A stretch of DNA of 61,251 nucleotides, filler included, from Kipferlia bialata (lineage: Eukaryota): assembly GCA_003568945.1 (NCBI GenBank). It is 3 parts of 3 records of this genome, joined end to end, with 100 filler letters (N's around TTAATTAATTAA, not from the genome) between each part and the next. Parts side by side here need not be neighbours in the genome. Positions count along the whole stretch, not along the records: positions 1 to 22,817 come from BDIP01000278.1; positions 22,918 to 45,662 come from BDIP01000279.1; positions 45,763 to 61,251 come from BDIP01000329.1. One strand, 5' to 3'. The notes beneath the pieces are model-generated. The model saw only the letters and a program-made list of their open reading frames with translations. It did not search any database and was not told where the DNA came from. A program made the position numbers and the translations under genes. Shown here piece by piece: positions 28 to 59,555 of this stretch (position 1 is the first letter of the stretch; every line of letters begins with the position of its first letter).

Positions 28-1332
28 GAACGAGGCCCACAACAGTGAGCTCTCTGCTCTCAAGGCAGCCCTGGACGACGAGAGGGCTGAGGTATATAGA
101 ATATAAAATATATTATTTCATGTATAGTATAGTATATTAGTATAGTATATATCTGCCCTCAAGGCAGCCCTAGATGATGAGAGGGCCGAGGTAAAGTGAT
201 ATGTATATTTGTATAAGTAATGATATATCAATTATGAATGAATGGCATATGTACTCTTATATTTCATGGTATTTATTGCCTCTCAAGGGGGCCCTAGATG
301 ATGAGAGGGCCGAGGTATAGAGTATATGTATATTATACACATATATATATACTATATATATATATACTATATGTATATATATTTATCCACCCCTCACCTC
401 CAGATCCAGGCCGAGGCCGAGAGAGAGAGGGCCGAGGGAGAGGTCATGAGGCAGGAGTACGAGACTCAGGTATGTAGGGATATATATATATAAATATATA
501 TGGCGTCACTGTAACAGTGTATGTGTTGCTTACCATCTCTCTCTCTCTCTCTCTCTCTCTCTGACCCTTCAGGTCCGTGAGCGTTTCAACCTCCAGATGC
601 AGAGGGAGAGAGACAACCTCACTGCTGTCACCGACACACTCAGGTATGTTACTACTATATTCATATGTACATATATATATATATATGTATTATATCCTTA
701 TCTGTAGGCACCAGCTGGATGAGGAGGTATGATTAATGTATATATATATTCATATGTATGTACGATATCTAATATATGTCTAATATACAGGCACCAGCTG
801 GATGAGGAGAGAGAGGCCCTCCAGGCTGCCAGTGCCGAGGCAGAGAGGCAGATGAGACAGGAGGCCAGGGAGGAGGCAGAGACACTCAAGGCTGCCATGA
901 AGGTACAGAGTATACATGTTACATATATATATTTAAGAAGAGAGTGTGTGTGTATGTGTATATGTATATGAATACCTCTCACCCCAGGCCGAGCTGGCTG
1001 CCGAGGTCCAGAGGGTGGAGGCAGACCAGGAGAAGAGGGTCCAGGTATGTGTATGTGTATACATTGCTATAGATGAATATATATAGAGAATATATAGAGA
1101 ATATATATAGAGAGAGGGAGAGAGGGAGAGAGATTGTGTTCAGAGGGTGGAGGCAGACCAGGAGAAGAGGGTTCAGGCACTTAGATTCTCTAGTATTCGT
1201 AAATAGTTTTCTATATACCTGCATGTATATATAGTTAGTATTATCCTCATTCCAGGCCCACGAGGCCCAGTACGAGGCCCTTCTGGCCGCTGAGCAGGAG
1301 AGGGTCAGGAAGATGGAGGTCTCCAGGTAGGG

Positions 1333-1369
<37 letters not shown>

Positions 1370-1515
1370 ACACCCTTAATGCCAGGATTGAGTTTGAGGA
1401 GGCTGCTCTTGTCAAGGCCTCTGCTGCCGTTGCTGAGAAGCAGGAGGAGATGGACAGGGTGATGAGGCTCGAGAGAGAGAGCCTTAAGGCTCAGGCAGAG
1501 CAGGTATATATATAG

Positions 1516-1551
<36 letters not shown>

Positions 1552-1650
1552 AGCAGGAGGAGATGGATAGGGTGATGAGGCTGGAGAGAGAGTCTCTGAA
1601 GGCACAGGCCGAGCAGGTATATATATAGTATATCTATAGTATATCTATAG

Positions 1651-1684
<34 letters not shown>

Positions 1685-3282
1685 AGCAGGAGGAGATGGA
1701 CAGGGTGATGAGGCTGGAGAGGGANNAGAGAGAGAGAGAAGCAGGAGGAGATGGACAGGGTGATGAGGCTGGAGAGGGAGTCTCTGAAGGCACAGGCCGA
1801 GCAGGTATAGTGTATGTATATATATATATATAGAGAGAGAGGGGGGGGGGAGAGAGAGAGAGAGAGAAGTAGGAGATGGACAGGGTGATGAGGCTGGAGA
1901 GGGAGAGCCTCAAGGCACAGGCAGAGCAGGTATGTACTGATATATATGAGACATATGTATTAGTTTCTCTGTATATCTGTAATCTGTATATTATAGTATA
2001 CTTATGTCCCAGGACCAGGCTGCTGCCCGCCAGTCCGTTTATATTGTAAATGATGTGATAGTATTAATGTATAATTGTGTATATATTGTATTTAGTGTAT
2101 ATACTTATCCCAGGACCAGGCCGCTGCCCGCCAGTCCACATACAATTAGTTGATTGTATATATATACATATATACATTTGTATATACACTGTACTATGTA
2201 TGTATATATATATTCACTTATCCCAGGACCAGGCCGCTGCCCGCCAGTCCATCGCCGAGGCCCAGCAGAGAGGCAGGGAGGTGGAGGACGAGATCAGGTA
2301 TAGATATGTATTTATTATACACTCTATAGAGAATGTGTATATATATATGTATATATATATATACAGAGAGAGAGAGTGAGAGCTAGAGAGGCAGGGAGGT
2401 GGAGGACGAGATCAGGTTGAGATGTATATATTAAATAATATATATATAGAGAGAGTGTGTATATGTATATATATGAATGGAGAGAGAGAGAGAGCCAGAG
2501 AGAGCTAGAGAGGCAGGGAGGTGGAGGACGAGATCAGGTAGAGATGTATATATTATTCACTCTATAGAGAATGTGTTTATGTGTATATGTATATTTATGT
2601 GTGTGTGTGTGTGTGTGTCTAACCCCTCAGGATGCGCTACTCCCAGCTCCTGTCCCAGGCTGAGCACAGGGCCCAGCAGGCTATTCAGAAGAGGGTCGAG
2701 CAGGATAGGTGTATATATATATATATATATATATACATATGTGTATATGTGTATGAATCTATATACACACTTTGTCCAAGCGCAATACCTACTTCCCCCC
2801 CCCCCCCATCTCTCTCAATGTGTATATGTACCTAACCCCCTAGGCTTGAGTGGGCCAAGCGTGAGGCTGCTGCCCAGGAGAGTGAGGCAGAGCTCGACAG
2901 CCAGAGACAGGTCTACGAGCAGGAGACTAAGGAGAGATACGAGGGTATGGATTTCTAATATACATTGTTTTATGTGAATATATTATACTCCCTCACCCCC
3001 AGCCATGCTTGCCGATGTCAAGAGGCATTTAGAGCATTATATTCAACTACATAGATATATATAGTGTGTATAGTATCACCCTCACCCCCAGCCATGCTGG
3101 CTGATGTCAAGAGGCAGTCCCAGGACAAGTGGAGGAGGGAGCAGACCAGGTATATATGTATATACACACACTGCCTGGCAACATATATACATATATGTGC
3201 ATTTGTATTTGCATATGTTCTCACCCCCAGGCACGACGCCGCCCTCCTTGCCGAGAGGCAGAGCCTGGCAGTCCAGATCCAG

Positions 3283-3321
<39 letters not shown>

Positions 3322-4325
3322 ACAACCATACTCCCCTGAGACTATTCCTTTACATTATTGATTAACACTTTCTATTACTTCTCTCTCTCCCTCTACACCC
3401 TTATTCCCCAGGAGATGGAGCAGGAGAGGTCTGCCAACGAGCACATGCTCAGGGGACAGCAGAGAGAGGCACTGGCTGCTCAGAGGTACATACATCATTG
3501 AGTGTATAGAGAAACCATATTATTGTCCATTATTGAAGTTTATTTTGTACATTTGAGACATATGTATATGTCTCATATCATCCCCTTACCCCCAGGGCCC
3601 AGCACGACGCCCTGATCGCCAACGAGAGAGAGAGGCTGGAGGCTGAGAGGGAGAAGATGAAGACTGCGGCCAGGTATGCTTATGTATGTATATATCACCT
3701 CCTATCGCGAGAACGCACTCTCCCTTGCCGCAGGGATTTCTTATAACTATATATATACACTATGTCTCTTATTATGTCTTACCTCCCAGCGAGCGCGAGC
3801 ACGCCTTGTCCCTGGCTGCCATAGAGAGAGAGAGAGAGATCAGGGCTGAGGTGGACGCCCAGACAGAGGTCTACAAGAAGCAGACCCAGGTAATGAGGCA
3901 TACTCTCTGTCTCTCTCTTCACCCTTCATTAGTGCCTACTATACTGTACATACTCTCTCTCTCTCTCTCTCTACACCCCTGATACCTAGGCCCAGCAGGC
4001 TGTGCGTGTTGCTGCCCCCCCTCCCTCCTCTCTCTCTATTTGTATATATAGTATATACAAATAGTATATACATACCCTTACTCTAGGCCCAGCAGGCTGT
4101 GCGTGTTGCTGCCCTTGAGGCTGAGTACAAGGAGAGGGCACAGGCACAGGCAGAGACTGAGCACCAGAGGGTATGTGTATGTGTACTATATACATAAACT
4201 AATACACAAACTAATACATATACTATGATATATATATGGTATGATATATATAGAGAGGGCGCAGGTCCAGGCAGAGACTGAGCACCAGAGGGTACGTGTT
4301 TTCATACTGCTCTTTAAGGAGAATA

Positions 4326-4359
<34 letters not shown>

Positions 4360-5091
4360 TTATATACTCTACACCAACCCCCAGGCCCAGGCCTATGCCG
4401 CCAAGGAGACTACTCTCTCTCTCTCTCTCTCTCTCTATACTAATATCCCAGGCCCAGGCCCATGCCGCCAAGGAGACTACTCTCTCTCCCTATATATAAT
4501 ATTTATATACTAACCCCTAGGCCCAGGCCTATGCCGCCAAGGAGACTGCCCTCAGGGCAGAGCTCAGACAGGCAGAGACAGAGGCCACGGCCAAGAACGC
4601 ATCTCTGGTATGGACTATGTATATATATATATGTATTAGTAAATAAATAAATATCTTTGAATTTGAGAATTTGTATATTTATATATATTTAGATTGAGTG
4701 TATATATCAGAGACAGAGGCCACGGCCAAGAACGCATCTCTGGTACGATGTCTCTCTCTCTCTCTCTTCTCCCTCTCTATTCATATCTGCAGGTCTATAT
4801 ATATATAATATTTATATATATGGCTCTAACCACCTAGATTGCTGACGAGCGTGCCCGCCTTGACCAGGAGAGGAAGGTCATGGCCAAGCAGGCAGAGGAG
4901 GCAGCAAAGGGTAAGTAGATGCATACATTGCCCCCCCCTGTCTATGTATATATGCTATAGGTATGCGTGTACCCCATCTCACACTCCAGAGGTGCAGAGG
5001 CTGGCAGATGAGAGTGTCAGGGAGAGAGAGAGAGAGCTCGAGAGGACCAGGAAGAACCTCCAGGTCAGGGTGGTTATTGTTCCTATATTCG

Positions 5092-5122
<31 letters not shown>

Positions 5123-7644
5123 CTAGGCTGCCCTCACCACTTCTAGACAGGACATGGACAAGGAGTTCTCGGCCAAGAGAGACGCACTGGCCAGGTATAT
5201 AGCACAATGTGTTCCTCCCCCCACCCCTTAGTGCCTTACAATACTGATTATCACTCTTATATATGCCCTCCCTCACCCTTGGGAGCACACTGCCCAGCAG
5301 CAGCATATCCATGCACATACCCCAACATATATATATACTAGTCTATGTAGATATATAGATACACTGGGGTCTCTAACCCTCTAGGGAGCACACTGCCGAG
5401 CAGCAGCAGATGCTGGACAGTACCATCACAATATAGAATATATATATACATATTCATATACACTCATATATACACTCATATATACATACTCACCACAGGG
5501 AGCACACTGCCCAGCAGCAGCAGATGCTGGACAGGGCAAGGCAGTCCGAGGAGGCAGCCCAGCACAAGTGAGTATTATATATACACATACATACACACAT
5601 ACACATATATATATATAGAGAGAGAGAGGGAGAGAGAGAGAGCAAGGCAGTCGGAGGAGGCAGCCCAGCAGAAGTGAGTGGTATTACATATATATATTTG
5701 TATACGTGTAGTTAAGTATGAACCCCTGCTCACCCCAGGTACGAGACCCTTACTGCCGAGACCCAGCACGCACACGCAGAGGTACATACACACACTATAT
5801 ATATATATATATATCAGTAAGTATATGTCGCACTCTGAGTATATATCTAACCACTAGGAGATGCGTACCCTTGCCGACGAGAGGGAGAAGGAGAGAGACG
5901 CACTCCACGCCGCAGCTAGGTATGGTGGATATTCTACAATTCTCTCTCTGTGTGTGTATCTCCCTCTCCCTCTTTCTACCCCCTTATTCCAGGGAGAGCG
6001 AGGCTAGCCACAGGCTGGCTCTCACACGTGCCGAGGACGCTGCTAGGTATATATAGACTATATGTATAGGGTACTGTAATGCATCTTGTCCACCCTCCAA
6101 ATTCTCTCATACATTTGTGTCTTTTATAATTTCATTCTCACTCTTAGGGAGCGCTATGCTGCCCAGCTACATTGTACACACTATACCCACATATATGTAG
6201 TATCCCGCTCTCTCTGTATATGTATGACACTGTCCCCTCACTGTTAGGGAGCGCTATGCGGCCCAGCTAGATTGTGGACACTGTACTGATAGTTATATAC
6301 ATTGCATATCTCTCTATATATGTATATTACACTGTCATCTCACTGCTAGGGAGCGCTATGCTGCCCAGCTTGCCGAGACCCGCACCCTACTCATGCAGGA
6401 GCAGGAGGCGGTGAGGAGACAGGTATGCATTCGTCTCTCTTACACTATATACTCCGGCCATGGCTTCTTCTATTATCAGTTCTAACACCCCAGGATTCCC
6501 TCGACCATGCCGGTGTGATCCGTGTGCTTGAGCAGAAGCAGAGGGCCGAGATTGAGGGTATCAAGACTGAGGCACACGCTGCACTGGAGAAGAAGTTCCA
6601 GGTATAGTTTGTATGCATACTCCCCCCTCCCATCTCCAACCACCGCTTTACCCTATAGGAGCGCGAGGCCGAGCTTGTTGCCCTGCACACTGCCCAGACA
6701 GCCAAGGCAGAGGCCGCAGCTGAGACCATTCTCAAGGAGAGGTGAGGAAGACATGTATAAACCATGTTGTTCATTCAACACTCTCCAATTATTTGTATTA
6801 GTCTCACCCCCAGGTCCCTCCAGTCTGACACCCTCCTTATCTATATATTATACTTACNNNNNNNNNNNNNNNNNNNNNNNNNNNNNNNNNNNNATCTATA
6901 TATTATACTTACTATACTTACTATTCTTACTATACTTACTGTATATACCTGACTTGTACCTCACCCCCAGGTCCCTCCAGTCTGACACCCTTCTGGCCCA
7001 GGCCAGGAGGGAGAGTGAGGAGAGGGAGAGACTGCTCAGGGAGGACTGCGACGAGAGGCTCAGCCTCGTGCAGCAGGTGTGTATATACTGTATATGTATA
7101 TATATATACTCTCTCTCTCTCTCTCCCTTACCTTCAGGATGCCGCCCAGCAGATGGATGCCCTCAAGGCCACCCTCCAGCAGGTATCAGACTGTTTCTCT
7201 CTCTTTCTCTCTCTCTCTCTATATATATATATCAGAGTGTATATACGTCTTCCCCTTACTCTCTCTCTCTCTCTTTTCCTCTCTCTCTCTATGTATGTGT
7301 ATATATCTATATGTATATATCTATGTATATATGTCTCACCCCCTAGGAGAGGCAGGCCCTGGTGTCCGAGAACACCGCTGCTATTGCAAAGGCACAGAGA
7401 CAGGTGTGGTATCTAATATACACATATATATACACTCCTATGAATGTGTATACTTACTATGTGTTTAGGTTTGACTCACCCCCCAGGTCACCCAGACCCA
7501 GTCCGACATCCAGTCCAAATATTACTTATACATATATTCTCTCTCTCTCTCTCTCTTCCTGTATATATGTATATATGTGTATATATATGTACTCACCCCC
7601 TAGGTCACCCAGACCCAGTCCAAATAGTACTTATACATATCTAT

Positions 7645-7680
<36 letters not shown>

Positions 7681-8881
7681 CTAATACTCTACTTACCCTA
7701 CAGGTCACCCAGACCCAGTCCGACATCCAGTCCAAGTACGACGCCCTCGCAGACACACTCAGGTGAGGGTCATACTCTCTCTCTCTCTCTTCCCCCACCC
7801 CCTCCCTATTCTCTAGGTATTTGTATATATATATATCCTTACCCCCAGGTCCGACCTTGAGGTTGAGAGACAGCGCATCATGCAGGACCACCAGGTACTA
7901 ACACATCTGTATACATATATATATACTGTATACATATATATATACTGTATACATATATATATATACTATATATACTATATATATACACATACAGGTATAT
8001 AATTATTGTGTATTACTGTATGTGTACTATTAGGGAGACAGCGCATCATGCAGGACTACCAGGTACTTGGTAGTTGTATACATATATTGTATGTCTATAT
8101 GACAGTGTGTGTGTGTTACTATCTTCCTAGGACCGTGTTGCCCTCAACCGGCAATCATATGAGTTGATGTCTCAATATATATGGTTACATCCTATCTAAT
8201 TCGTAGGACCGTGTAGCCCTGAACCAGAAGGCCAGGCAGGAGTACGAGGCACAGCTCAGGGCCAAGTACCTGGCACTGCAGCAGCAGTTCAAGCAGCAGG
8301 TATAGCATCTCATTGCATAGTATATATATAGTATATATAGCAGGATATATATATATATATATATATATACTTACAGTAGGGCGAGCAGGAGGTGGACAGG
8401 GCCAGACAGCAGCTGGATGCACAGAGACTGTCACTGGAGGCAGAGAGGACAGCCTTCATGCAGAGGTATAGAATATATAGTGAATATAGTGGATATGTAA
8501 TTGTATGTATACGTCCCATCTTACCCCTAGGACCCACGAGCAGCTCACCAAGGAGTACGCTGCCAAGGAGGAGTCCCTCAGGGAGAGCCTCAAGGTACAT
8601 ATATGTATAAGTATATATACATATGTTTATGTAGTGTCTATTATTTATATGTATAGACCTCCCCCCCTCACCCCTAGGCCGAGGAGCAGCACCTGGACGA
8701 GAGAGAGGCAGAGCGTCGTGCCGCCATTGAGGTATCTCTCTCTCTATGTATATGTATATATGTCAGTGTCTCTCACCGAGGCTTAGCGCGGGGCCATGTG
8801 TGTATCCAATACTCTCTCCCTCTCTCTCTCTCTCTATATATATATATACTGCTTACCCCTAGGCTGAGCGCGAGGCCATGC
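28..8881 (+). CDS. Long E/Q/R/A-rich coiled-coil protein (multi-exon, 5' end outside the window); apparently continues in frame into 8944-16439
   Basis: Many short GC-rich exons bounded by (C/T)AG and GT translate into heptad-like sequence, e.g. 28-91 NEAHNSELSALKAALDDERAE and ...EKQEEMDRVMRLERESLKAQAEQ ending at 1503. The introns are microsatellite-rich and contain partial exon copies. Confidence 0.85.
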
Positions 8882-8889
8882 GTATATCC

Positions 8890-8934
<45 letters not shown>

Positions 8935-8943
8935 TCACATCAG

Positions 8944-11631: not shown

Positions 11632-11665
<34 letters not shown>

Positions 11666-20000: not shown

Positions 20001-21091
20001 CCCAGGGGCAACTGCCTCTGGCTCTGGCTCTGCCTTGTATGAGATACAGTCATTCAGCGTTTCCAACCATTCAGCGACGATATATTGTAAGAGAATGCAG
20101 TTGAGGAGAAATCACACGCCATCCCGCTTCTTCGCGGTGTAGGTATATATATATATATACATGCTTGTGTGACTGTCCCCCTCTGGGCGGCAAGGCTTAG
20201 CACAGTATACTACTGTAGTATACAGGTAAGCATGGAAGTGTGCATCCATATACACAATACATACCTCCTGTGTGACCACTGTCCCCACTTGTGATGTAAG
20301 GTCCATCTCTATCTCCCCCACTCTCTTATAAATGTATGGATGTCTCAATATATATATATTAATATAGAATATATATATATATACACAATACTTGCCTCCT
20401 GTGTGACTGTCCCCACCTGGGAGGCAGGGGTGAGGGGGTAGTCGGTGGCCCTTTGGGTTAGACGGGTTGGTATGCATAGAAACTCATACACACGTACATA
20501 CATAGAGCAGTAAGAGAGTAGTAAGAGAGTAGTAAGAGAGGGGTGAGGGGGTAGTCGGTGGCACTGAAGGTTAGACAAGACGAAAGGACGTAGATGCATA
20601 AACACACAGAGAGAGATGGAGTGGGGGGGAGAGAACACATACAGCGATGTCGAAGAAGGAGATAGGCGGTGCCACTTGAGAACGTGAACATAATATATAC
20701 ATACACCGAGAGAGCTGGGTGCAGTAAGATAGGGCGTATTCATATAAAACACAGACTGCATGTACCCTAGAGTCTTGATGTGGATGCCACAGTAGTGGCT
20801 GTTATCCTTGGCAGCTCTCTGATGGTAAGGAAGGGTAAAGTGAGAGAAGAATACATATAGAGACAGAGTATATAGAGAGAAGAGACCAAGATATAGTGTG
20901 CACTCTGAAGGATATTGAATAGTATCTATCTGACAGAGAGACAGAACGGAGGAAGTGTCGATAGATACACATGGGGTCGTCATACAAAGGAACATAGGGA
21001 ATATATTCAGAGAGAGAGGGGGAGAGAGCATCGATACCTTGCAAGGCACCCCTGTCTTGTTGGTGGCTCTGCAGGCCCGCTCTCCGTCACG
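17014..21091 (-). CDS. Multi-exon protein with three C-x9-C-x10-C-x2-H zinc-finger-like repeats, an acidic linker and a C-terminal DUF4240-like domain (5' end not visible)
   Basis: Spliced repeats are CRATNKTGVPCK|RAAKDNSHYCGIH, CKAKKKSGEPCK|NHAKPGSEYCGTH and CTAMNKTGKPCT|RPAKAGSEYCGTH, each split by a phase-0 intron at the same position. The C-terminus reads MTTFDAFWAFVAEVDW...GGGDDHTFMDLPAECVGRGKDHYYRMLGSPRELA...ECFSYIF. Confidence 0.7.
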
Positions 21092-21133: not shown

Positions 21134-21136
<3 letters not shown>

Positions 21137-21175
<39 letters not shown>

Positions 21176-21182: not shown

Positions 21183-21249
21183 GCTGTCAAAGACGATCAC
21201 GAATGATTAAACATTAGTACATCACAGTACATGCACACACACCCCTCAC

Positions 21250-22817: not shown

Positions 22818-22917
22818 NNNNNNNNNNNNNNNNNNNNNNNNNNNNNNNNNNNNNNNNNNNNTTAATTAATTAANNNNNNNNNNNNNNNNNNNNNNNNNNN
22901 NNNNNNNNNNNNNNNNN
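22818..22917. other. Artificial contig linker N44-TTAATTAATTAA-N44
   Basis: Exact 100-nt block with all-frame stop codons; an identical block occurs at 45663-45762. Confidence 0.95.
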
Positions 22918-44576: not shown

Positions 44577-44894
44577 CTACATCATATACCTCATAAGCCT
44601 CTCGACGACAATGTTGTCGTATTCCTTAATCTCGTTGATCAGCAACGCTGTTCTTCGAATGTCTGAGTCAGACTCTGACTTACAGTCCCCGGTCTTGAGT
44701 CTCTCCTTTACAGTCCGCCAGAACTCAGTAGCTTGGCGCCATATTGTGGTCTGATCCTAGAGGAGTGGGGGAGCGCAACGGAGAAGACTGAGCTTCAGAG
44801 TAGAAAAGAGTGTATGACTACTATTGTGTACCTCCCATGACAAGGCCTTGTACTCACTGAGTGTCGATACAGAGAGAAGGTCAGGCGACGCGGG
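44577..44894 (-). CDS. Small orphan protein, paralogue B (last two exons)
   Basis: PASPDLLSVSTLSEYKALSWE|DQTTIWRQATEFWRTVKERLKTGDCKSESDSDIRRTALLINEIKEYDNIVVERLMRYMM*. Confidence 0.55.
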
Positions 44895-45240
44895 CTGAGG
44901 ATGAGGAAGCATAGGAACCAGGAATAACCACGAAAGGGTATACTAGTATAAGCAATGGAACGGACTCAAATTGAGTGACTTGAGGTACTCAACCCTAATG
45001 ATGTATACACTCATATTCACTCAGAGAATAGATTATATATGGATGCGGTTCCAACCTCAGGCAAGGACTTATTCCCTGCATTAGGGCTCCATCCTGAGTA
45101 GCTCAAGCTGAATAGACCACAAGAGAGGAGCCCATTCAAAACCACACATATCTGTTTTTCCTCCAACCATATCTAAGGGTCCAGACGACGGTGGTCGCAG
45201 ATCTAACTCTGGAACTACCTCTCCTGTCATCAAGATATAT

Positions 45241-45662: not shown

Positions 45663-45762
45663 NNNNNNNNNNNNNNNNNNNNNNNNNNNNNNNNNNNNNN
45701 NNNNNNTTAATTAATTAANNNNNNNNNNNNNNNNNNNNNNNNNNNNNNNNNNNNNNNNNNNN
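45663..45762. other. Artificial contig linker N44-TTAATTAATTAA-N44
   Basis: Same 100-nt block as 22818-22917. Confidence 0.95.
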
Positions 45763-45818
<56 letters not shown>

Positions 45819-45852
45819 TATATACACTATATACACTAATCTATATACACAC

Positions 45853-48800
45853 CAAGGGTCATGAGCTGGGTGGGTATGCTCAGGAACATGGGTACAAGGC
45901 GCTGGAAGACACGTCTCACGGGCTAGAGTGAGGAAATGAAAATATATACATAATATAATAGTAGCCTTTCAGATATATCGATAAATGACTGAAAAGTACA
46001 CAAGCACAACTATATATATGATTGGCACAAGGCGGTGGAAGACACGCCTAACAGGCTGGGGGTGAGTGTACATATACATACACAAACACACACATATGCA
46101 TAAATATAGATAGTGTATATACATATGGGGCCAATGCGCTGGAAGACACGTCTCACGGGCTGGAATGAGTATATATATAGACAGACATAGTATATAGTCA
46201 CATATGTATATACACTATGACACAAATACATACGAGACACGCCTAACAGGCTGGGGGTAAGTGGATACATTATATATCCAGACAAAATGAAATGACCTTG
46301 CAGCCATAGAGTTAATGACTAAAGAATACACATGTATCCAAAGAAACTACGTATACACCCTTAGTTACCTTCAGTGAGGCGTCTCCATCTAGCGTGTGCT
46401 TGGAGTGCCTATCTCCAGAGGTGAAGGTCCTAATGTGAGTATGTAATGAAATTCACACTCTACTCGGTCGATTGTAAGGGCATCATTCAAGCTCTGTCAC
46501 TACCCAAACCATATGGTAGATACTAGGCCTAGTACGAAGAATTTATCCAGCAGCGATACTCTTATAGATTTGCTCATATTGCATGGACAATATTGCAAAG
46601 CATTACCGTAGAATGAACTACATTATGACATATCCTGCACATACCTCACCAGCATCTCACAATTGTTCTTCTGGCCCTCTATCAATCTATATATCAATCT
46701 ATATATACATACATACATACATATTAGATATATATCGTTTCCCTCACCTCACCAGCATCTCGTAGCTGCTCTTCCTGCCTCAATATATATGATATATCTA
46801 TACATAACTACGTATTTGTATATTAACAAATGTCTTGCGCGTACCTAACTAGCATCTCGTAGCTGCTCTTCTGACCCTCTAACAATCTATATATACATAC
46901 ACATTATATATATATATCGTTTCCCTCACCTCACCAGCATCTCATAACTGCTCTTCTGGCCCTCAGACCTCACTATGAAGTGGCCAACAAAGCGCCACTG
47001 GGGTTAGGGACATTGGTATACATGCACACACCCAATGACGCCATGTCAGCGTATGGCATAAGTGTATATCTACTGTACAATATACTCACATACATATATA
47101 TATACATACCATAGCAACAAGGGTTAGCACTATCAATGACGCCATGTCAGCGTATGGCATGTGGGTGCCCCACAGGAAGGAGAGAGAGGCAGCGCCGTGG
47201 TTACTGGGGTGAGTACGGAGTGGAATACATCAATATGTATATATATAGACTGTAGATACTATAGATACTATGGATACTATAGATACTATAAATAAGTAGT
47301 ATTACTACACTAAGTAGGATATGCCCAACGGGAAGGGAAGCGATGTGACATCGCAGTAATACTGCTATAAGTATGGAATAGTATGCATATATATATACAT
47401 AGCATAGTGTATACCCATCTCTCTCTCAATATATATCCAAATGTAAATTCATTTCTACATATACACACCATATATACATATACATACCCACATATTGATA
47501 CATACCTGACATAGAACATGCCCTCCCTGATGACTAACCAAAGGTTTATATTAACGAACTAGTGTATATACATACATATACAACTGTACATACCTAGCAT
47601 AGAACATTCCCTCCCTGATGACTAGATACAGCGTATAGTATGCTAGTCATGATACACATATATGGGTATTCATAATACTAAATATAATATACATACGTAT
47701 ACAGTAATCACCTGACGTAAAACATGCCCTCCCTGATGACTAGCCACAGTATATATATACGAACTAGTATATATATACATCCATACAATTGTACATACAT
47801 ACATACAATTGTATACATACATACAATTGTACATGCCTAGCATAGAACATGCCCTCTCTGATGACTAGATACAGCGTATAGTATGCTAGTCATGATAGAC
47901 ATATATGGGTATTCATAATACTAAATGTTATATACATATGTATACAGTAATCACCTGACGTAAAACATGCCCTCTCTGATGACCAGATACAGCGCATAGT
48001 ATGCTAGTCATGATACCCATATATGCATTCATATAAATATATATATATATATATACGTATACAGTAATCACCTGACATAGAACATGCCCTCTCTGATGAC
48101 TACCAACACCATATAGACAGTTATCAATCATATATATATGTATACTTGTATATACATAGATCAATTAATAGATACCTTGTGTAAAACAGACCCTCCTTGA
48201 TGACCAGCCACAGCACCAGTATCAGTTCAACTGAGAGGAGGGCGGAGACAGGGTTGTGGAAGAGCTAGGGGTGAGGAATATAGAGAGACACAGAGAGGGA
48301 GAGAGAGAGATACTCCATAGACAGTGGTGTGAAGTGTCCAAAGTTAGATATCTAGGTATAGATAGAGGTGCATATATACATACAGTCGATTATCCCATCC
48401 TACCCGCAGTATGTTAAGGCTCTATATACATATATACACACATATACATATATACATATATAAAACACACATATATCTACCTATCTATCTGTACATGTCT
48501 GTATATACCTGCAGCGTGTTCATGTATCTTTCTCTCTCTCTCTATACATATATATAAATATATACCCTTACCTAGAATATATATATATATGATAGTATAT
48601 ATGTTAGTATATATATATACCTGCAGTGTGTTCATGCTGCTGAATGCCACAAAGACATTGGACAGGAACTGGGGGTTGTAGCAGAGCTGGTATTAGAAGG
48701 TATATATACTACATACATATACATACCGATTCATAAAGAAATCTACAAATATGAACACAGATCACTGGACAGAAGCTCAATATGCATAAATGAGTGTGAC

Positions 48801-49465
48801 AAATATATATATGCATCTACACTTCTATCTGTATATAACTCACTATATGTACCTTGACAATCTGCCATATGCACCCGAACATGAGCACCCAGGGGTTGAC
48901 GTGCTCCACCCCACTCTCTACACTCTCTACACTCTCTACACTGATGTCTACACTCTCATTGTGCTCAGTGTCTGTATCCTTGGACACTGGACGTCCCTTG
49001 CCGTGGCCGTCGGCTGTGAACCTACGCGATGAGAACATACCCTGAATGAATTACACACTATTAATACTATATACAGTATTAATAGTGTCACTCTGCTACT
49101 ACTGTATATACTCTCTATACACCTAGCCTTCTGACCCAGCTTCCAGAGAGTATATATTGTATATTGTATATACATTTATATTATATATATAGTACATTAC
49201 AATATAGCCTAGTGTAGTACCTAGCCTTCTGGCCCAACTTCCAGAGTCATATTGTAGTATAGTATATAGAATAGTAGCAATAAATCAATATTATATAATA
49301 CTATAGTATACCTAGCCTTCTGGCCCAACTTCCAGAGGGGACTGCCAACAGGTACAAGGCTGGGGGTGAGACAATGACGATATACTAATATATGCATATG
49401 TATATATATACACATATATGTATTATACTATACCTGTTCAATGTCCTCAGTAAATGTATATATTA

Positions 49466-49511
<46 letters not shown>

Positions 49512-50317
49512 ATACATATATACTCCAACACGAACAATGCTGGGGGTGAAAAAGGGGGTGCCATGCGATACGGCATATATATACATACCCACATTTTTAC
49601 CAGTATATACACACACACATATGATAAAGTACCTGTTGAGTGTCCTCAGCTCTGTCAACAACAAGTCATCCACTGCCGTGATGCCGTGCGACACGGCATG
49701 GGGTGATGTAGGCACTGCTGTACACTCTGTGTCAGACATGTCACTGACAGTGGATATGGACATAGGGAGGGAGAGAGAGAGCATAGAGGCAGGCGGAGGG
49801 CCAGAGTGGGTGGGGCGCATCAGTACTAGGGGCACGTCTACATCCAAAGCACTCTCTGTCTCTGAGAGGATAGTCTCACTCTCTGATACCACGATGTCTG
49901 CATCGCCGTATGCATCGCAGTGCTCAGATAGAGAGAGAGAGAGGGAGAGGGACACGGGGTCCAGGCAGGGGGAGAGAGAGTGGGTGGGTGAGGGTGTATC
50001 ATGGACCACTACCCTCTCTCCCTCTCCCTCTGTCTCTCTATCCCTCCTCTCAGCCACATCGAATGACTGTGTCATCGAGTAGATACTGCTGCCCTGAAAG
50101 GAGGATGCACTACCCATACTGGGTACACTCCCTCTACTTCCTATAAAGGAAGATGCACTCCCTCCACTAGGTATACTGCACATAGACCCCATAGAGCCCA
50201 GAGAGCCCATAGAGCCAATGCTCCCTATGCTGCTGATGCTTCCCATCACCTGGGCTACTGCTCTCTCTCTCGCCTTGTCCCTTCCCACAGTCGACATGGA
50301 CCTGGGGTCAGATTGAT

Positions 50318-50360
<43 letters not shown>

Positions 50361-50486
50361 CTCAATACTAAATACGTATATATTAACTATACCTATACAT
50401 ACATAATGTATATATTCCAATACATGTATCCATATCATACCTCGGCATGGCAGAGACTGCCCCCATCACCACACATATACTACATG

Positions 50487-50517
<31 letters not shown>

Positions 50518-51107
50518 ATGCATACAGTAATACACTACTACTATATATATATATCTCACCTCGGCATGGCTGAGACTGCCTCCATCACCACACATGTCAT
50601 GTCGGTCTCTCTCTCCCTCTCCCTCTCGGGGTCTGGGGTGTCACGTCTGGAAGAGGCAACCCTAAGATGAGGGATATATATATATATATATAGACAATCA
50701 TATAAGAGGCCACCCTGGGGTGAGGGCATTACCCACGTACATATATCAATGTATATGTATATGTATATGTCTTGTATTGAACATACAGAGACATCCTTGG
50801 GGGAGGCAACCCTAAGAGGTGAGGGGTATATATATATATATATATATATATAGACAATCATATAAGATGCAACCCTGGGGTGAGGTACATGTGGTATAGG
50901 TTCATATACTTTGTGTATATACATATACATACATACATATACCCTTGGAAGAGGCCACCCTGAGGTGAGGGCATTACCCACGTACATATATCAATATACA
51001 TGTATATGTATATGTCTTGTATTGAACATATGGTATAATAGGCTCATATACTTTGTGTATATGCATACAGAGACATCCTTGGAAGAGGCCACCCTGGGGT
51101 GAGGGGA

Positions 51108-51150
<43 letters not shown>

Positions 51151-54100
51151 CATATATATATATAGACAATCATATATGATGCAAGTCTGGGGTGAGGAAC
51201 ACATGGTATAACAGGTTCATATACTTTGTGTATATGCATATACACACAGACATATCCTTGGAAGCGGCCAGCCAAATGGATGAGGGCAATACAAATGAAG
51301 AGATCTACGTATACATTGGAGTGGGGGGTATGCAAATCCCAGTGTATATTCGCACACACAGATCCAGATATACTTCAACACATACCTACTCCATTCTTGG
51401 GGAGGGGAGTATATATATTCATATATGTGTACCTAGGTGTGTAGAGTGTGTCCCCCCTGTGACTGAAGCTGTCCTCTCTGGCCAAGGTGGTCTGCTCAAT
51501 GCTGAGGGGTTAATAATGGAACAGTATCATGCATATAGTGATATATATCATATATGCAAATATTTATGTATATGACTATTAACAGTATATACTCCCTGGC
51601 CAGGCTGGTCTGCTCAATGCTGGGGTGAGTAATAGTCTCCACATCATAATAGTCTCCATATGTGTGTGTACCTGGCTGTGATGACAAACCATGGGTCATC
51701 CAGTAGTAGTGGATGTTATCAAACATATATCTTAGAATCTATTTCTCTCTCTCTCTATATATATATGTATTCATATGAGTATACTCCTATATATATACCT
51801 GGCTGTGATTACAGACCATGGGTCATCCAGCAGTATGGACGAGGTGTATCCAAAGAGAGAGGGGTGGTCTCTGTCACACTCTCCCTCTCTCTCTCCCTCT
51901 CTCTCTCTGGGGGATAGGATCTGGGGTGGGAGGGACGTTGACAGATATACACACCAACACAACCTATTGAATACTGTTAACACTTCATAGCAAAATTCTC
52001 ACAAATATATATGTATGTATATATATATATATATGCGTGTACCTTGTCCACCCAGGATGCCTTGTGCTCCAGCAGACAGGTATCGCCTAACTCCTGCGGT
52101 GAGTGTAACACTTCTATAACACTAATGAATGTGTGGATATATTAGTGTACCTGTATAGTATACACCTCCTCAGATTCATTAATACTCAATTTGCAATAGT
52201 ATTCAATGAAATTTACATATCCATGCAACCACCTCAATCACCTCCAGTGCCATTGTCAGTGCTGGACAGTACATATATATACATCACTGTATATCACCAT
52301 ATAGTGGTACATATGGTATATACCATTATACTCACCTGTATCACCTCCAGAGCCCCTGTCAGAGCTGTGCTGGATAGGAGTATCACCCTCACAGGGAACA
52401 GGCATGGGGTGAGGGTTGTATCTATACTTAAGGATTTCCATCAAATTACTATGCGTAATACACCGCTTTCATACTTACAGTACTCTTGTGTATACATTGT
52501 ACATACATATATATACCTATTCCCTTGAGCACCTGCACCCTTGGCTCACTCTGCACCAGAGGACATGGAGGGGTAGAGGTACAGGGGGGTGCTTTGCAGA
52601 CAGCTCTGGCAACCTAGGGGGTGAGGAGAGGACTCTACTTCCTGGTAGATATATCATAAGAGAGAGAGAGAGAGGGGTCATCTTGCAGACATCTCTAGCA
52701 ACCTAGGGGGTGAGGTATGAATATATCTAAAGAGATATATATATGTATATATATATGGAGAGAGAGATAGAGGGAGAGAGATTCTGCAGACATCTCTAGC
52801 AACCTAGGGGGTGAGGTATGAATACAGTTAGAAAGGGAGAGAGATATGTAGGGAGGGAGAGAGAGAGATTCTGCAGACATCCCTGGCCACCTAGGGGGTG
52901 AGGCGTAATCAATCCACTAACTCTGTCATTGATATATAGTACAACTCACTGATCATTACCTCATTTCCTACTGCGAAACTACAATGACACACTTGTATTG
53001 TACAGTATAAATATACTCAATACAATACCCACCTGCTCACTGACCAGCACCACACTCTAGGTATCTATAGTAGATACATATATGTATATATATATGTATA
53101 TATGTATATATATATATAATACCACCCACCTGCTCACTGACCAGCACCTCGTTGACCCTGTTGTATAGTACAATATATATCTATATATCTATCTACCATA
53201 CAGATATATGTGTATATATATATACACAATGAAGTGCCCACCTGCTCACTGACCAGCACACTCTAGGTATGTATAGTATATAGTATAAGTATGTATAGTA
53301 TATATGTATACATCTATATATACAATACCCACCTGCTCGCTGACCAGCACCTCGTTGACACTGGCCTTGGCCATCAACCTGGGGGTGAGATAGATGTAGA
53401 TGCATATAGATAGAGAAACAAGTAGAGAGAGATACACTAAATATATACAATCTATATACTATATATATACTAGATATTTACAATTTACTATATATTTTAT
53501 ATACACTATATATATACTAGATGGTGTTGGCACTGGCCTTGGCTATCAGCCTGGGGGTTAGGTACGCATACGCAAATACACTATGATCACATAGGTAAAT
53601 CTAATGAGTACAGACATAATTAGAAGTCGTAAACTACCACAACATAATAGTTGTACAAATACGAGAATAGTGCTTATGAACATATCCGTTGGAATGAAGT
53701 GTGTAAACGAGAGTTATACCTAGCTGCTGTGTTGACTGTGTTGCCAAACACGTCGTGCATTAATGTCAATATAACATTATACTATATGTAGAATACAAAC
53801 ACACATATATATATACTGCACTATATACATGTACCTAGCCGCTGTGTTGACTGTGTTGCCAAACACGTCGTACATGAGCTCCGTAGAGCCAAGGACACCA
53901 GCCGTGACATCACCACAGGCAACACCGCCTCTGAGAGTTAGTGCATTATACGCAACTATATATATATATGTTAGTCTAAAGGGAGAAGATAGATAAAACT
54001 AGGACACCAGCTGTCACATCGCCACAGGCTACTCCACCCCTGTAGGGTTAGTAATAGTATAGAGCAAGAGTGTGTGTGACACACTGACATGTATATATAT

Positions 54101-57025
54101 AGTGTATATATATAGTGTATATATATGCATATACATGTATATGTGTACTAGTGTACCTCAGACCCACAATAGTATCTGCTGACACTGTATCTCCCACCAT
54201 CTGGGACACACAGACATATACACACAGACATACATATATATATATATGTAATTCCATATGTATATGTACACATATATATACCTGAGCCCGCTGAGTGTAT
54301 CTTCCGACACTGTGTCCCCCACCATCTGGGACACACACACACACACACATATATATATAGTGTATATATATGCATATATATGTATATGTGTACTAGTGTA
54401 CCTAAGCCCCAGAATGGTGTCCTGTGACACTGTATCTCCCACCATCTGGGACACACTGACATACATATATATATATATATCAATGCCTTATTATACATAT
54501 ATATACTGAATTACCTCAGCCCAAGGATAGTATCTCTAGACACCGTGTCCCCCACCATCTGTGACACACACACACAGGCAGTGCACATGTACTGGCACAG
54601 GAGGCTGGTATGAGGGGGGGAGAGGGGGAGAGAGAGAGAGAGAGAGAGAGAGATACAGGCAGTGCACATGTACTGGCACAGGAGACTGGGGTTGGCTATA
54701 CACTCATATATACATAGGGAGAGAGACAAAGATGAACACGCAGTGCGCATAGAACCATACCTACTCCCACTATGTTCCTTCCCATCTCTCTCCCCCTCTC
54801 TCTCCCCATCGCTGTCTCTAGCCAACAGAATCAAGGTACCGTCAGCGCCTGGTGTCAGATTAAGGCAGATATGCAATCATGTGTACCTCAACGAATATGA
54901 ATCTAGAGATACCATATCTCCATAGGAAAACTTGTGACAGCAATCAATATATATATGCCTCACCCTTGATCTTGTCCACCCCTGGGTATCTGTGCAACAG
55001 CTGGTCGAGACAGTGCATCACAGCAATGAGGTCCTGGGGTTAGTTATTGGCATGATACCCAGTACATATATGCGAATATATAGATAGAGAGAGAGAGAGA
55101 GAGAGAGATGTGCCAGATAGTAGAGTGTCTCATTATATACTATACAAATAAGAATTGTAGTATATATACATTTACCTACTAAGGATTGAGAATACAACAC
55201 ATATATCACGTATGTATGTAGTACACACATATAATAGCACATATATACCTTAACGTATTGTGCCGCTGGCACCGATGTCCCAGACAGCTTGACACTGAGG
55301 TGCCATATATATATATATGTATGTGTATGTATGCACACTTCTCCTATATATATCATATATATTATAGGATTTACTGTATATATAGTACATATTAAGAGTA
55401 CCTTGACATACTGTGCCGCTGGGACGGATGTCCCTGACAGCTTGACACTCAGGAACCCCACTGTGACACCAGTCTCGGTGGTGACCATGCCTATTATGAG
55501 TATATAGTATGTATATATTAATAACGATAGAGAGAGAGAGAGAGAGAGAGACTGAGGAATCCAACTGTGACACCAGTCTCAGTGGTGACCATGCCTATTA
55601 TGAGACATATATCCACACAATATCCACAATATATATTGATACACATATGAAGAGAGAGAGAAAGGAAGAGACTGTGATACCGGTCTCGGTGGTCACCATG
55701 CCGAGGGTGTGAGTAGGGTAGGTGTATAAATATGTGTGTGTATGTAGAGAGAGAGTGAGAGACAGTCGCATTAATCTCAGTGATGACCATGACTAGAGGG
55801 TGAGGGGAGTATACATATATATAGAGAGAGATAGTTTAGAGAGAGTCAGAGCAATACTTGCGGTGATGACCCTGCCTAGGGGTAAGTAAGGTAAGTAAAA
55901 ACAGCGAGAAACAGCGAGAAACAAATAGATGGATAAATAATGGCTATACAGTATGACAATACCACAATACCTGGTACACTTCTCTCTACTTCTCTCTGCC
56001 CCTCCCCCTCATTCTTCGGAGGTACACCCTCTCTCTGTTCTCCTGCATGACTCTGTGCCTCTGCATCTCCATCTCTCTCCCCCTCTGTCTCAGCCTGTGT
56101 GGCTGTCTCCAGCAGTGTCTGGGCAGAGGTGATGTGCAGGTGGGGCAGAGTGACATAGCTACTGTTAGACACTATATATGTATCATATATGTATGTACAT
56201 AACTGGTGTTATTGAGTTACTGGTGAGACTATACACACATATATATATGTGTGAATCGACAGGCCTATATATCCCTCACCTCTGCATGTCCTCGGGCAGA
56301 GGGATCCCTCTCTCCCTCTGTATATCTTCATACATGTATATATATATGATACATGAGTATATATATATATATATATCCCTCACCGCTGTGTGTCCTTGGG
56401 GAGTGAGCTCTGGAAGACCCGCAGCGCTGCCTGTCTGCTCCTGAGAGGGTTAGGTGAATAAGTATATTGATTGATTGGTAGATATATAGATAATGACCAC
56501 TGTATATGGTGGTTGATACTGGTACATATAGGCTGCCTGTCTGCTCCTGAGGGGTTAGGTGAATAAGTATGTATATTGATATATATTTGGTATTTATGTA
56601 TATATATAATATAGTGTGCCTGTCTGCTCCTGAGGGTTTAGGTGAATACATATAGTTACATATAAAGATGGAGTATGTATTTACATACTCACCTCAGGCA
56701 CTGGTTGCACTGTCTGTTGACACAACTCTCATTCACAACAAACATTTGTATAGTATACATATAACATATATATATATATAATGTTAGTATAGTAAATATA
56801 CTACACATATACATGGTACATTGATACAATATATATATGTGTTTGTTAGAGTACTCACTTTAAGCACTGGTTGGACTGTCTGATGACGTGGGTGATGTCG
56901 CCATGCATGAGGAGACTCCTGGGGATAAGAGCCGGTGTATATAGAAAACATACATATACACAAATAATTAGGGGGCAAGAACTATATATATATAAATATG
57001 ATGAGACCATACAATTATATATACT

Positions 57026-57065
<40 letters not shown>

Positions 57066-59094
57066 AGACTACTGGGGGAGAGCACGGCACCTTGAAGACA
57101 CATAGTAATATATATGTATATATATATATATAGTAATTGTGAATACACTCACATTCTGACCCCCAGGAGGCACAGCACCAGACGAGTACACATGTATAAT
57201 AGTAATATACTTGTCATATATATATTGAATTCAGTATATACAATGTATTCTGAATATGTGTTGACTCACATTCTGACCCCCAGGAGGCACAGCACCAAGA
57301 GAGTGCATCCAAAGGCCACGGAGGGGATGTCCTTATGAGTCCTGGGGGGTAAGGGATAGAAGTATTAATATAAATAGTATATATATATATATATTGAGAG
57401 AGAGAATGAGAGGGAGAGACTGGGGACATGATGTCCTTGTAGGGTTAGGTATCATCTACAGGCATATATATACATATCATCACAAATATGCATCATCTAC
57501 AGACAACACACTATATACACACATACCGGAAACTGAATGTGACAAAGTAAATGGCGTATGCCACCCCACCCTTGATAGGGTGTGGTACATAGATACATAT
57601 ATATATATACTCCACCATACGTATACTACATACTCATATACATTGTATATGTATATATATGGTAGTACTTACCAGAAGCTGAATGTGACCAAGTTGATTG
57701 CGTATGCCACCCCCACCCACACCCTTGATAGGGTGTGGTATCTGGGGGAGAGGGCATTGCGAGAGACGACTAGGGAGAACATGAACTGAGGGTAAGGGTG
57801 TGTAGATATAGATACAGATACAGATAGAATAATTCATGAAGTATAATCATGTGTCTATGTGCAATTGATATGTGTACATACATACCTGTGTGTTTCCTAT
57901 GAATGTCTCCCCCCCTGTGATGTCTATGTACCACAGCTGGGAGCACAGGGAGCCAAGGGTCAGGATGATGGAGACTATCCTGAGGGTGAGTATAGTACTA
58001 TGAACATGAAGATATATATATGTGTGAATGTTATATACTATATTATATAGCTGGGAGCAGAGACAACCAAGGGTCAGGATGATACTGACAGTCCTGTAAT
58101 TAAGTACTGGTATATACAGTATACATTGTATATATAGTATACATATGAATAATAGAGGCCAGGGAGCCAAGGGTCAGGATGATACTGACAATCCTGAAGG
58201 TGAGTACTAGGAAGAGAGAGGTATTAAGTATTAACAACATGGAGCTACATATACAGAATATCCACACACATAATACCTCTCTATATATCTATATAGACAG
58301 AAAAGATTCACCGACACAAACACTCACCATGACACCACCAAGTAATGCTGCCCGGCTGTGACACATGTACACACACTAAGAAGTGTATACTATATGATAT
58401 ATATATATATATGTATGTACATACCACGATACAACCAAGTACTGTTGCCTGGCCCTGACACACTATATACTACATGTACTATCTAGAATATTGTATGTAC
58501 TGATTCTCACACTTACCAAGATACACTCAAGTACTGCTCCCTGGCTGTGACACATGAACACACTAACAAGTGTATACTATACAATATATACATACCATGA
58601 CACTATCAAGTAGTGCTGCCTGGCCCTCACACATGAACAGAGGAAGGGGGGACAGTCACACTCAGTGCTATCACTCTCAGCACACTCCCTGCTCTCTCTC
58701 TCTCTCCCCTTGGCTGATGTGGTATGGTGACCACATACGCCTAGCCTAAGCCTGGGGTAAGTAAGGGGGGAGAGAGAGAGAGAGAGAACAGATGTGGTAT
58801 GGTGTCCGCATACACCTAGCCTAAGCCTGGGGTAAGTAAGGAGAGAGATATATCTACAAATATATGCACATATACACACCCATACTTCACACACTACACC
58901 AGTCATTGCTACTATTGCCATACGTTATAAATATATATATATACACCAGTCATTGCTACTATTACCATACGTTATACATATATATATATATATATATATA
59001 CATATATACATATGTATACACCTGTAGTAACAGCACAATCCGGACGCAACTAGCAATATCTGGTATCCCAGGACATGTATCTGGGCAGAGAGGT
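45853..59094 (-). CDS. Multi-pass membrane class III nucleotide (adenylate) cyclase: TM block - catalytic domain - long Ser-rich linker - second TM block; both ends incomplete
   Basis: Spliced catalytic motifs: TETGVTVGFLSVKL, YPGVDKIK|GADGTLILLA, GLR|GGVACGDVTAGVLGSTELMYDVFGNTVNTAAR|LMAKASVNEVLVSEQ (about 53330-55490). Hydrophobic exons lie at 57280-59090 and 46930-48670. A pre-catalytic helix is duplicated: LRVFQSSLP (56385-56441) and RRVFQRLVP (45853-45922). Confidence 0.8.
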
Positions 59095-59122
59095 CTGGGG
59101 GGTGAGTTGGAGAGAGAGGGGT

Positions 59123-59163
<41 letters not shown>

Positions 59164-59555
59164 CAGGACGTATATCTGGGCAGAGAGGTCTGGGATTGAG
59201 GCCTATGTATAGAGAGAGAGAGAGATATATAGTGATATAGAGAGGCGGAGAGGTTTGGGAGTAAGGATGAGAGAGTATATAATTGTAGAGAGGGGAGGGG
59301 TGGGATAGAGAGAGTGAGAGAGAGAGTAAGGTGGGGGGAGAGATATAGGCAGAGAGCGAAAGAGATGGAGGAGGGGGAGGGGGGGGGGGGGGGGGGGGTG
59401 GGGGGGGGGCGGGGGGGGGGGGTGGGGAAGGGGGTACTGCGATGACACTTACTGAGTGTTATGCTGTTATGAAACAGGGAGCGGGCTAGTGTAGCAGGTC
59501 ATATACTAAGATAGAAGTCCACTTGACTAGACATGACAATGAGTGAGGTAGTCAC

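Follow-up and report, generated by a model that had tools for sequence, protein, structure and literature searches.

Half-exon copies with a single splice site in Kipferlia bialata introns diverged under protein-level constraint and may stem from long-diverged alleles

The window analysed here is a 61,251-nt stretch of the genome of the marine flagellate Kipferlia bialata, in which introns hold short truncated copies of the adjoining exons, hereafter called echoes. It consists of three separate contigs joined by two spacers, so the span 28..59200, which an earlier note on this sequence treated as one locus, is not a single locus. The genome paper describes a 51-Mb SPAdes assembly of Illumina pairs whose k-mer peaks suggest diploidy, with 124,912 GU-AG introns and AUGUSTUS models built with RNA hints (PMC5874029). 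The echo census covered 80 curated exons of three genes rich in repeats, designated A (36 exons), Z (29) and C (15). These genes and the spacers are listed below, where omega is the ratio of nonsynonymous to synonymous divergence (dN/dS) between echoes and exons.

28..8731, plus strand: gene A, 36 curated exons, an 886-aa open frame with no stop; 28 echoes, omega 0.10
17262..21091, minus strand: gene C, 15 exons, the 3' part of model KIPB_001836, with zinc-finger-like repeats; 6 echoes, omega 0.67
45849..59094, minus strand: gene Z, which is KIPB_002112, 29 curated exons; 49 echoes, omega 0.17
22818..22917, no strand: spacer N44-TTAATTAATTAA-N44, which joins contigs and is not biology
45663..45762, no strand: second spacer N44-TTAATTAATTAA-N44, which likewise joins contigs and is not biology

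The product of gene A is rich in Glu, Ala, Arg and Gln, a composition suggestive of a coiled-coil-like protein. Gene Z encodes a membrane protein with an adenylate/guanylate-cyclase domain (PF00211); its curated exons agree with the public model KIPB_002112, and its reading frame is free of stops after the correction of two exon boundaries. Next to gene C, exon 21250-21717 is 100% identical to KIPB_001836.

The search for echoes was codon-blind: the start and the end of each exon were compared with every intron position, and no splice site was demanded. It returned 95 matches with a score of at least 20, of which 83 were retained at a cut-off of 24. The 12 excluded matches comprised 10 with scores below 24 and 2 of opposite polarity, both by-products of genuine echoes. 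The retained echoes form 50 arrays beside 40 of the 80 exons, and they lie in the first and third contigs, plus one or two in the second. Their polarity is strict: 38 upstream echoes retain the acceptor and the exon start, and 45 downstream echoes retain the exon end and the donor, as against one reverse-polarity match on each side. As a control, 940,614 nt of introns of other genes contained 5 exon-start and 13 exon-end matches, so that echo density is 20-24 per 10 kb in adjoining introns versus 0.05-0.14 per 10 kb in the introns of other genes. The principal echoes and arrays are as follows.

152..314, plus: two downstream echoes (152-190 and 280-314) of exon 28-91, both ending in GT
1548..1929, plus: downstream array of exon 1386-1503 (1548-1616, 1681-1715, 1736-1804 and about 1860-1929), a four-gamete mosaic; 1681-1715 is cut by a gap, and the copy at about 1860-1929 has a stop and an indel
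2013..2537, plus: exon 2227-2297 with upstream echoes 2013-2036 and 2114-2138 and downstream echoes 2385-2415 and 2507-2537
3702..3731, plus: upstream echo of exon 3790-3889, an old copy that no longer has its acceptor and scores a borderline 28
3990..4742, plus: echoes of exons 4087-4170 and 4521-4607 (3990-4017, 4253-4291, 4385-4417, 4452-4484 and 4708-4742)
5282..8149, plus: other gene A echoes, at 5282, 5385, 5636, 6148, 6248, 6814, 7487, 7604, 8035 and 8131
58328..58826, minus: upstream echo 58826-58791 of exon 58751-58596, whose three downstream echoes are mosaics
55249..55792, minus: four echoes of exon 55490-55402, three of them upstream and one downstream (55300-55249; 7 silent and 0 replacement differences)
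54157..54685, minus: exon 54604-54515 with three 60-nt downstream echoes (proportion of silent sites that differ, pS, 0.40-0.84) and one upstream
53720..54039, minus: cyclase-core exon 53930-53835 with upstream echo 54039-54001 and downstream echo 53760-53720
52045..52713, minus: upstream echo 52702-52683, exons 52613-52517 and 52421-52336, and downstream echo 52264-52233, all in one DNA-read contig with no differences
51150..51735, minus: echo 51708-51672, and upstream echo 51619-51592 with its exon 51501-51433, in one DNA-read contig with no differences
47506..48264, minus: exon 48264-48176 (IKEGLFYT) with six downstream echoes, which all read REGM with silent differences among them; 12 four-gamete pairs
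46645..46997, minus: exon 46997-46930 with three echoes, of which 46879 and 46679 share a cut point and left flank and differ at 8 of 35 nt; echo 46679 has 0 silent and 3 replacement differences from the exon

Echoes are 13-69 nt long and each is anchored at one exon end only, which bears out the observation in the earlier note that most such fragments have a single splice site. The AG or GT is intact in 78 of the 83 and altered in 5, two of which have GC. One 19-nt upstream echo at 708-726 is identical to the exon and carries both AG and GT; it is a possible frame-shifting micro-exon. Within arrays, successive splice sites have a median spacing of 107 nt, and the spacer ahead of the cut end of an echo has a median of 76 nt. 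Intron length rises by 118 nt per echo, from a median of 83 nt in introns without one. Taken together, the spacing, growth and polarity are what a tandem duplication in one step gives when it breaks once within the exon and once within the intron. Echoes are genuine and recur in tandem with a unit of about 107 nt, which comprises a truncated exon half bearing a single splice site, together with intron sequence.

The coding parts of these units differ from the exons mostly at silent sites. Pooled over 889 codons, pS was 0.328 and its replacement counterpart pN was 0.068, corresponding to a Jukes-Cantor dS of 0.43, a dN of 0.071 and an omega of 0.165; differences at codon positions 1, 2 and 3 numbered 70, 59 and 213 across the 83 echoes, a bias that chance falls far short of producing. 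Counting only non-redundant codon states, omega was 0.22 (binomial p 5e-11 versus an omega of 0.5), and in comparisons of echo with echo in 22 arrays it was 0.25. By gene it was lowest in A and highest in C (0.10 in A, 0.17 in Z and 0.67 in C). The five exon-echo pairs quoted in that note do differ silently only, by 5, 8, 8, 7 and 4 nt with 0 amino-acid changes. For example, the pair involving 1548-1616 has 8 nt differences over 6 codons, including Ser AGC/TCT, and the 8 differences of the pair involving 54000-54039 fall in 7 whole codons and a split codon. These pairs are the cleanest cases, as the note itself had warned in calling them hand-picked and pointing to replacements elsewhere (277-314 has 2). 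According to the Nei-Gojobori method (NG86), which scores Ser AGC/TCT as two non-synonymous steps, 12 echoes equal the exon exactly, 18 differ silently only, and in the other 53 one or more non-synonymous steps separate echo and exon.

The simplest account is that echoes are ordinary dead junction duplications, neutral themselves, whose silent excess reflects the working exon's own synonymous changes. The expectation in the earlier note, that a neutral duplicate should show mostly replacements, had omitted this null, in which silent changes accumulate in the selected exon, the echo decays and omega is about 0.5; the silent excess nevertheless beats it. We simulated a neutral echo beside a selected exon with transition/transversion ratios (kappa) of 1, 3 and 6 and an exon omega of 0 or 0.15, with 60 runs each; the observed kappa was about 1.7 at four-fold sites. 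Across these settings the null predicted a silent fraction of 0.31-0.41, and the top run per setting reached 0.50 untrimmed and 0.53 trimmed. The observed fraction, taking one random echo from each of the 50 arrays, was 0.64, or 0.67 with the two cut-end codons trimmed, and tops every simulated run. Dead duplication fully explains the anatomy, and it fits gene C and single echoes such as 46679. It is nevertheless a very improbable general account, and for genes A and Z it is rejected by the silent fraction together with the echo-versus-echo omega. The claim that the fragments diverged under protein-level selection therefore holds.

Other features tell how old the echoes are. There is 1 stop in the 889 echo codons, and a few echoes have indels. 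GC content at third positions is 0.71 in echoes and 0.75 in exons, against an intron GC of 0.37, and silent changes from GC to AT number 50 versus 40 in the other direction. The dN of 0.071 limits the neutral share to about one sixth of the dS of 0.43, and the neutral age of the echoes, in substitutions per site, comes to about 0.03 and does not exceed 0.07. Six silent differences require two or three base changes, including Ser AGC/TCT and TCC/AGT, and four Leu swaps are also among the multi-step synonymous swaps, which point to long constraint. Replacements are conservative (71 of 108 with a BLOSUM62 score of at least 0, versus 49% for random changes). The gradient of replacements towards the cut end is slight (pN 0.074 distal and 0.062 proximal), and far echoes exceed near echoes in pN in 9 arrays, with the reverse in 3. 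Codon preference was uninformative: among 124 silent differences the echo codon was the commoner in 56 and the exon codon in 68, and random neighbours would give 50 and 74. Echoes therefore look young as junk and old as protein-constrained sequence (dS about 0.4); with so little neutral decay (5 of 83 splice sites, 1 stop) at a dS of 0.43, they appear to be young copies of old constrained sequence. Given a single working copy per chromosome, an omega below 0.5 would need either present use of the echoes or a past as working exon on other chromosomes. Serial exon replacement within one chromosome, suggested in the earlier note, would keep one selected copy at a time and could not bring omega below about 0.5. 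The diversifying gene-conversion cassette suggested there is unlikely too, as the changes are mostly silent.

Arrays may also bear traces of exchange. Their members often have a common cut point and bodies that differ silently, such as 46879 and 46679, or 58560 and 58371, and the four-gamete test fails in 3 of the 8 arrays with at least three echoes, a result to which recurrent mutation at saturated silent sites could contribute. Shared cut points and four-gamete conflicts are as expected if echo bodies were exchanged after birth. Intron flanks beside echoes are barely closer to the true flank than random introns (mean scores of 6-7 versus 0.6-1.7, with a standard deviation of about 5), and their likeness is independent of pS (rho 0.01).

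Short reads bear on whether the arrays are real. Read contigs, which lose rare variants, were examined over 51150-53270 (2.1 kb), and the DNA run may be the assembly's own source and so is not an independent sample. Two DNA contigs, 51150-51735 (586 nt) and 52045-52713 (669 nt), each span exon and echo with 0 differences at a depth of 350-392, so that the collapse of haplotypes, which the earlier note had named as able to undo its observation, was not found there. An assembly artefact, in which microsatellites served as the points where pieces of different haplotypes, or of different strains in the culture, were joined in tandem, is therefore highly unlikely. It would suit a short-read SPAdes assembly of a repeat-rich diploid (PMC5874029), the N gaps within two arrays and the probable mis-joins elsewhere in the window. 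Echo pairs moreover track dinucleotide-repeat density (rho 0.84 over 31 bins, to which an internal peptide repeat at 24.3-24.6 kb contributes 23 matches), and none occur at 10-18 kb and 28-44 kb of the window. On the other hand, the DNA-read contigs were built separately, an array can hold up to seven distinct versions, and no long word is common to the cut points and the exon upstream. The depth of DNA reads stays level over the exons and introns of 51150-53270, like that of the neighbours. The five variant letters in the DNA contigs lie within one array and match neighbouring copies, which in our reading were aligned across to it. No exon-echo joint occurs in the DNA contigs of this region, in which rare forms are lost; the sole listed joint links two GA repeats. 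One informative RNA contig (213 nt, depth 3.2) ends at the true donor 51433 and continues beyond the stretch with no echo joint, and the RNA-hinted annotation passes over echo splice sites.

These observations bear on the possibility that echoes are in present use, with part of the mRNA (or DNA) pool skipping from one direct repeat to the other and thereby connecting the retained half of the exon with the echo, so that exon, echo and the echo's one splice site all stay selected. Such use would account for the low omega, the retained splice sites, the strict polarity (a molecule that had skipped would depend on the splice site of the echo) and the freely diverged flanks without outside donors, none of which were found. 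We nevertheless think it unlikely: an in-register AG|GT, through which ordinary splicing between the repeats could act, lies in the duplicated segment of only 4 of 83 echoes; DNA depth is flat with the one GA-repeat joint; the lone RNA contig passes no echo joint, a weak argument; some echoes are clearly decayed by stop and indels; and silent alternatives offer no apparent benefit. More doubtful still is a role as spare parts, in which single-strand annealing of breaks between exon and echo would make the echo coding often enough to purge replacements. This agrees with the polarity, the retained splice sites and the mosaic arrays, and with the absence of Ku end joining in metamonads (PMC8516963). 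Each repair would destroy the echo, however, and a rate sufficient for selection would leave echoes too short a life to reach a dS of 0.4. Annealing should also weaken at 10-25% mismatch, and collapse joints are missing from the DNA contigs of 51150-53270, where rare forms are lost.

Echoes match only the adjoining exon, and a donor was sought among relatives. A representative search found about 20 members of the cyclase family at 33-47% identity, and the nine that were checked are Kipferlia proteins. The nearest paralogues of gene Z are KIPB_011308 (46%), KIPB_012999 (34%) and KIPB_009595 (34%). A 63-aa gene Z exon, compared with proteins of 112-2000 residues, recovered only KIPB_002112 itself; the whole protein, among lengths of 608-1935 residues at 90% clustering, lay outside this search. 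A gene B exon compared with JGI metagenomes gave 5 weak, unrelated matches. Two sediment RNA runs contained 7-9% of the words of 9000-16450, versus 54% for an RNA run of the same sample, which gave no evidence of a diverged relative, and one of these two runs, like one run with the same label, had nothing on 51150-53270. Present paralogues are thus too distant to be donors. The earlier note had called for a match to each echo in paralogues or another haplotype; the relatives found lie at 33-47%, and no second allele appeared in 51150-53270. Of the options it named, capture from diverged alleles fits best, and capture from present paralogues is unsupported. Tandem or segmental duplicates that had diverged, and that unequal crossing-over later removed or merged, would also supply several working copies at once, as alleles do, and the cyclase belongs to a large Kipferlia family. 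We regard such donors as improbable, since no paralogue exceeds about 47% over the domain, the process must recur independently in unrelated genes on different contigs, and echoes match the adjoining exon only.

We therefore favour, with a probability of roughly 0.55, a reading in which the coding part of the echoes was copied recently from long-diverged working alleles during recombination-based DNA repair. Fast intron turnover would leave exons as the sole homology between the alleles. A broken end anchored at an exon would then re-prime part-way into the other allele's exon and copy the exon end and intron, giving exon A, part of intron A, half of exon B and intron B, or the mirror image upstream. 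Later misaligned crossovers or conversions inside echoes would enlarge arrays and refresh their bodies from further alleles, with the cut point retained. The spliceosome would disregard single-site copies and take the outermost sites, namely the first donor and the last acceptor, so that echoes would be nearly neutral and decay. The strain would later have become homozygous at these loci, which would leave the donor alleles absent. Every step of this mechanism is deduced, and its missing piece is the donor allele. Metamonads are described as having no Ku70/80 and DNA-PKcs, with homologous recombination proposed as the mainstay of repair (PMC8516963). Human F7 tolerates silent pseudo-donors downstream of the real one in its intron 7 (PMC1557585), which parallels the skipping of single-site copies.

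Several points weigh against copying from alleles. No donor allele appeared in the read contigs of 51150-53270, the protein clusters (which are of size 1), the paralogues or the JGI metagenomes, where 39 pattern matches to cyclase relatives yielded 0 confirmed ones. A second allele was absent from the exons in 51150-53270 at 80% likeness, in contigs that lose rare variants. The reading requires the unusual condition that alleles or cryptic lineages continue to recombine at a dS of about 0.4 (up to 0.9). The predicted asymmetry, with cut-side flanks closer than splice-side flanks among the members of an array, was unseen in raw scores (6-7 of 18 arrays) and weak after scaling (p 0.04-0.15). Cut points lie at dinucleotide repeats in 24 of 83 cases versus 33% in the control, that is, without enrichment, which implies a re-priming step with no sequence signature. 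Replacements at positions conserved in the family (3 of 43 versus 12 of 75) show an avoidance that is not significant (p 0.25). The 6 echoes of gene C, with 4.5 silent and 11.5 replacement differences, are consistent with plain decay, and the choice of splice sites is deduced from the RNA-hinted annotation and one RNA contig.

Echoes share traits with several known systems. Silent-cassette conversion systems, such as Borrelia vls, Neisseria pilS, trypanosome VSG and chicken Ig pseudogenes, use cassettes that supply amino-acid diversity. Like these, echoes are partial, in-frame and apparently unexpressed copies beside an expressed gene; unlike these, their changes are mostly silent, their replacements are conservative, and their genes are unrelated and non-surface-variant. 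DNA elimination of the ciliate type between pointer repeats yields a rearranged form without the intervening segment, which differs from the flat depth and lack of an exon-echo joint in 51150-53270, as far as contigs that lose rare forms can tell. Intron gain through duplication of a proto-splice segment (PMC3265369) depends on an in-register AG|GT, which is rare in echoes, and the echo duplicate instead contains an existing splice site and intron. The likeness to such AG|GT duplication lies in an intragenic tandem duplication that leaves the mRNA unchanged. The 37-bp variable-number tandem repeat (VNTR) in intron 7 of human F7 has intact downstream pseudo-donors that are normally silent, with the most upstream site used (PMC1557585). 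Echo units likewise span an exon-intron boundary and repeat in tandem, with 78 of 83 pseudo-sites intact. The F7 pseudo-sites, as described, are identical and belong to one minisatellite (PMC1557585), whereas echoes accompany half of the exons in several genes and occur on the acceptor as well as the donor side; unlike F7-type neutrality, they differ under protein-level constraint (silent fraction 0.64 versus a null of 0.31-0.41). Tandem-duplicated, mutually exclusive exons resemble echoes as exon-like copies in adjoining introns under purifying selection (omega 0.17-0.25 for echoes), although they are described as whole exons with two splice sites that serve as splicing alternatives, and echoes are halves of 13-69 nt with one (PMC9013439). 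Drosophila Y-linked genes have extra exon copies near the working gene, linked to the use of repair pathways and gene conversion; these comprise entire exons or blocks of exons and sit mainly at the periphery of the gene, and the account consulted does not describe single-site halves or silent recoding (PMC8794474). The main text of the genome paper makes no mention of echoes (PMC5874029). The earlier note's statement that no such system had been described agrees with the literature searched, a coverage that leaves out most subscription journals.

A fragment with a single splice site would not be expected to have an omega near 0.2. With slightly more confidence than in alleles as donors, we hold that one of two wider possibilities applies: introns across the Kipferlia genome archive exon halves of deeply diverged lineages through exon-homology repair, in which case one genome records the synonymous diversity of a population and hidden outcrossing, or an undescribed process uses the direct repeats to recombine half-exons into mRNA or DNA. 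If the allele reading is right, thousands of echoes in the genome would sample alleles of past lineages that the strain no longer carries. One strain would then reveal the synonymous diversity of a free-living relative of Giardia, the constraint on its individual sites and any outcrossing or hybridisation, as well as the way in which repair works where canonical end joining is lacking. If echoes were used in mRNA, they would represent a new form of gene expression. The spliceosome is reported as reduced, with 87 of 174 proteins identified (PMC6679479). Since intact decoy acceptors and donors recur every 100 nt or so, this spliceosome would have to settle on the outermost pair across short introns, and the echoes would offer a natural experiment on splice-site choice. 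On the practical side, they mislead both gene prediction and variant calling in the Kipferlia genome.

Further features were observed in and around these genes. At 8731-8943, gene A halts at two upstream-type echoes (about 8781 and 8863) whose exon is missing; a 38-nt CT run follows, and then the unrelated-looking gene B begins mid-frame, which makes a mis-join or lost exon at the microsatellite probable. At 21136-21708, an RRP3/DDX47-like helicase contributes no more than its N-terminal DEAD domain to KIPB_001836, in which a 39-nt G run separates it from the zinc-finger-repeat protein; the contig or the model is likely chimeric. A mis-join is possible at 59380-59822, where the first 46 residues of KIPB_002112 originate beyond a long G-rich run and look like a separate gene. 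At 54964-54848 on the minus strand, the cyclase domain of gene Z reads KIKGADG and its paralogues KIKGSDG, at a position where class III cyclases carry KIKTIGD; the Kipferlia family is expanded, with about 20 or more cyclases that are possibly altered. The 9-mer CTACACGAT occurs 18 times on either strand (9472-18223 and 34946-39506) versus 0.64 expected, and 13 of the 18 copies lie within 9.4-15.3 kb, by eye in short, echo-free introns of gene B; it is possibly a regulatory motif or mobile-intron relic. A very large, intron-poor and echo-free gene at 27043-39640 has a 1744-codon open frame and, by eye, two P-loop-like motifs; at a guess, it may encode an AAA+ ATPase of the RNF213/midasin type. 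Two related segments separated by 4 kb (40755-41014 and 44751-44905; 82% over 115 nt) are apparently degenerate duplicated gene fragments. Finally, the minus strand at 60440-61150 holds exons of a small GTPase with short, echo-free introns, which we take to be Arf-like from the peptide read by eye.

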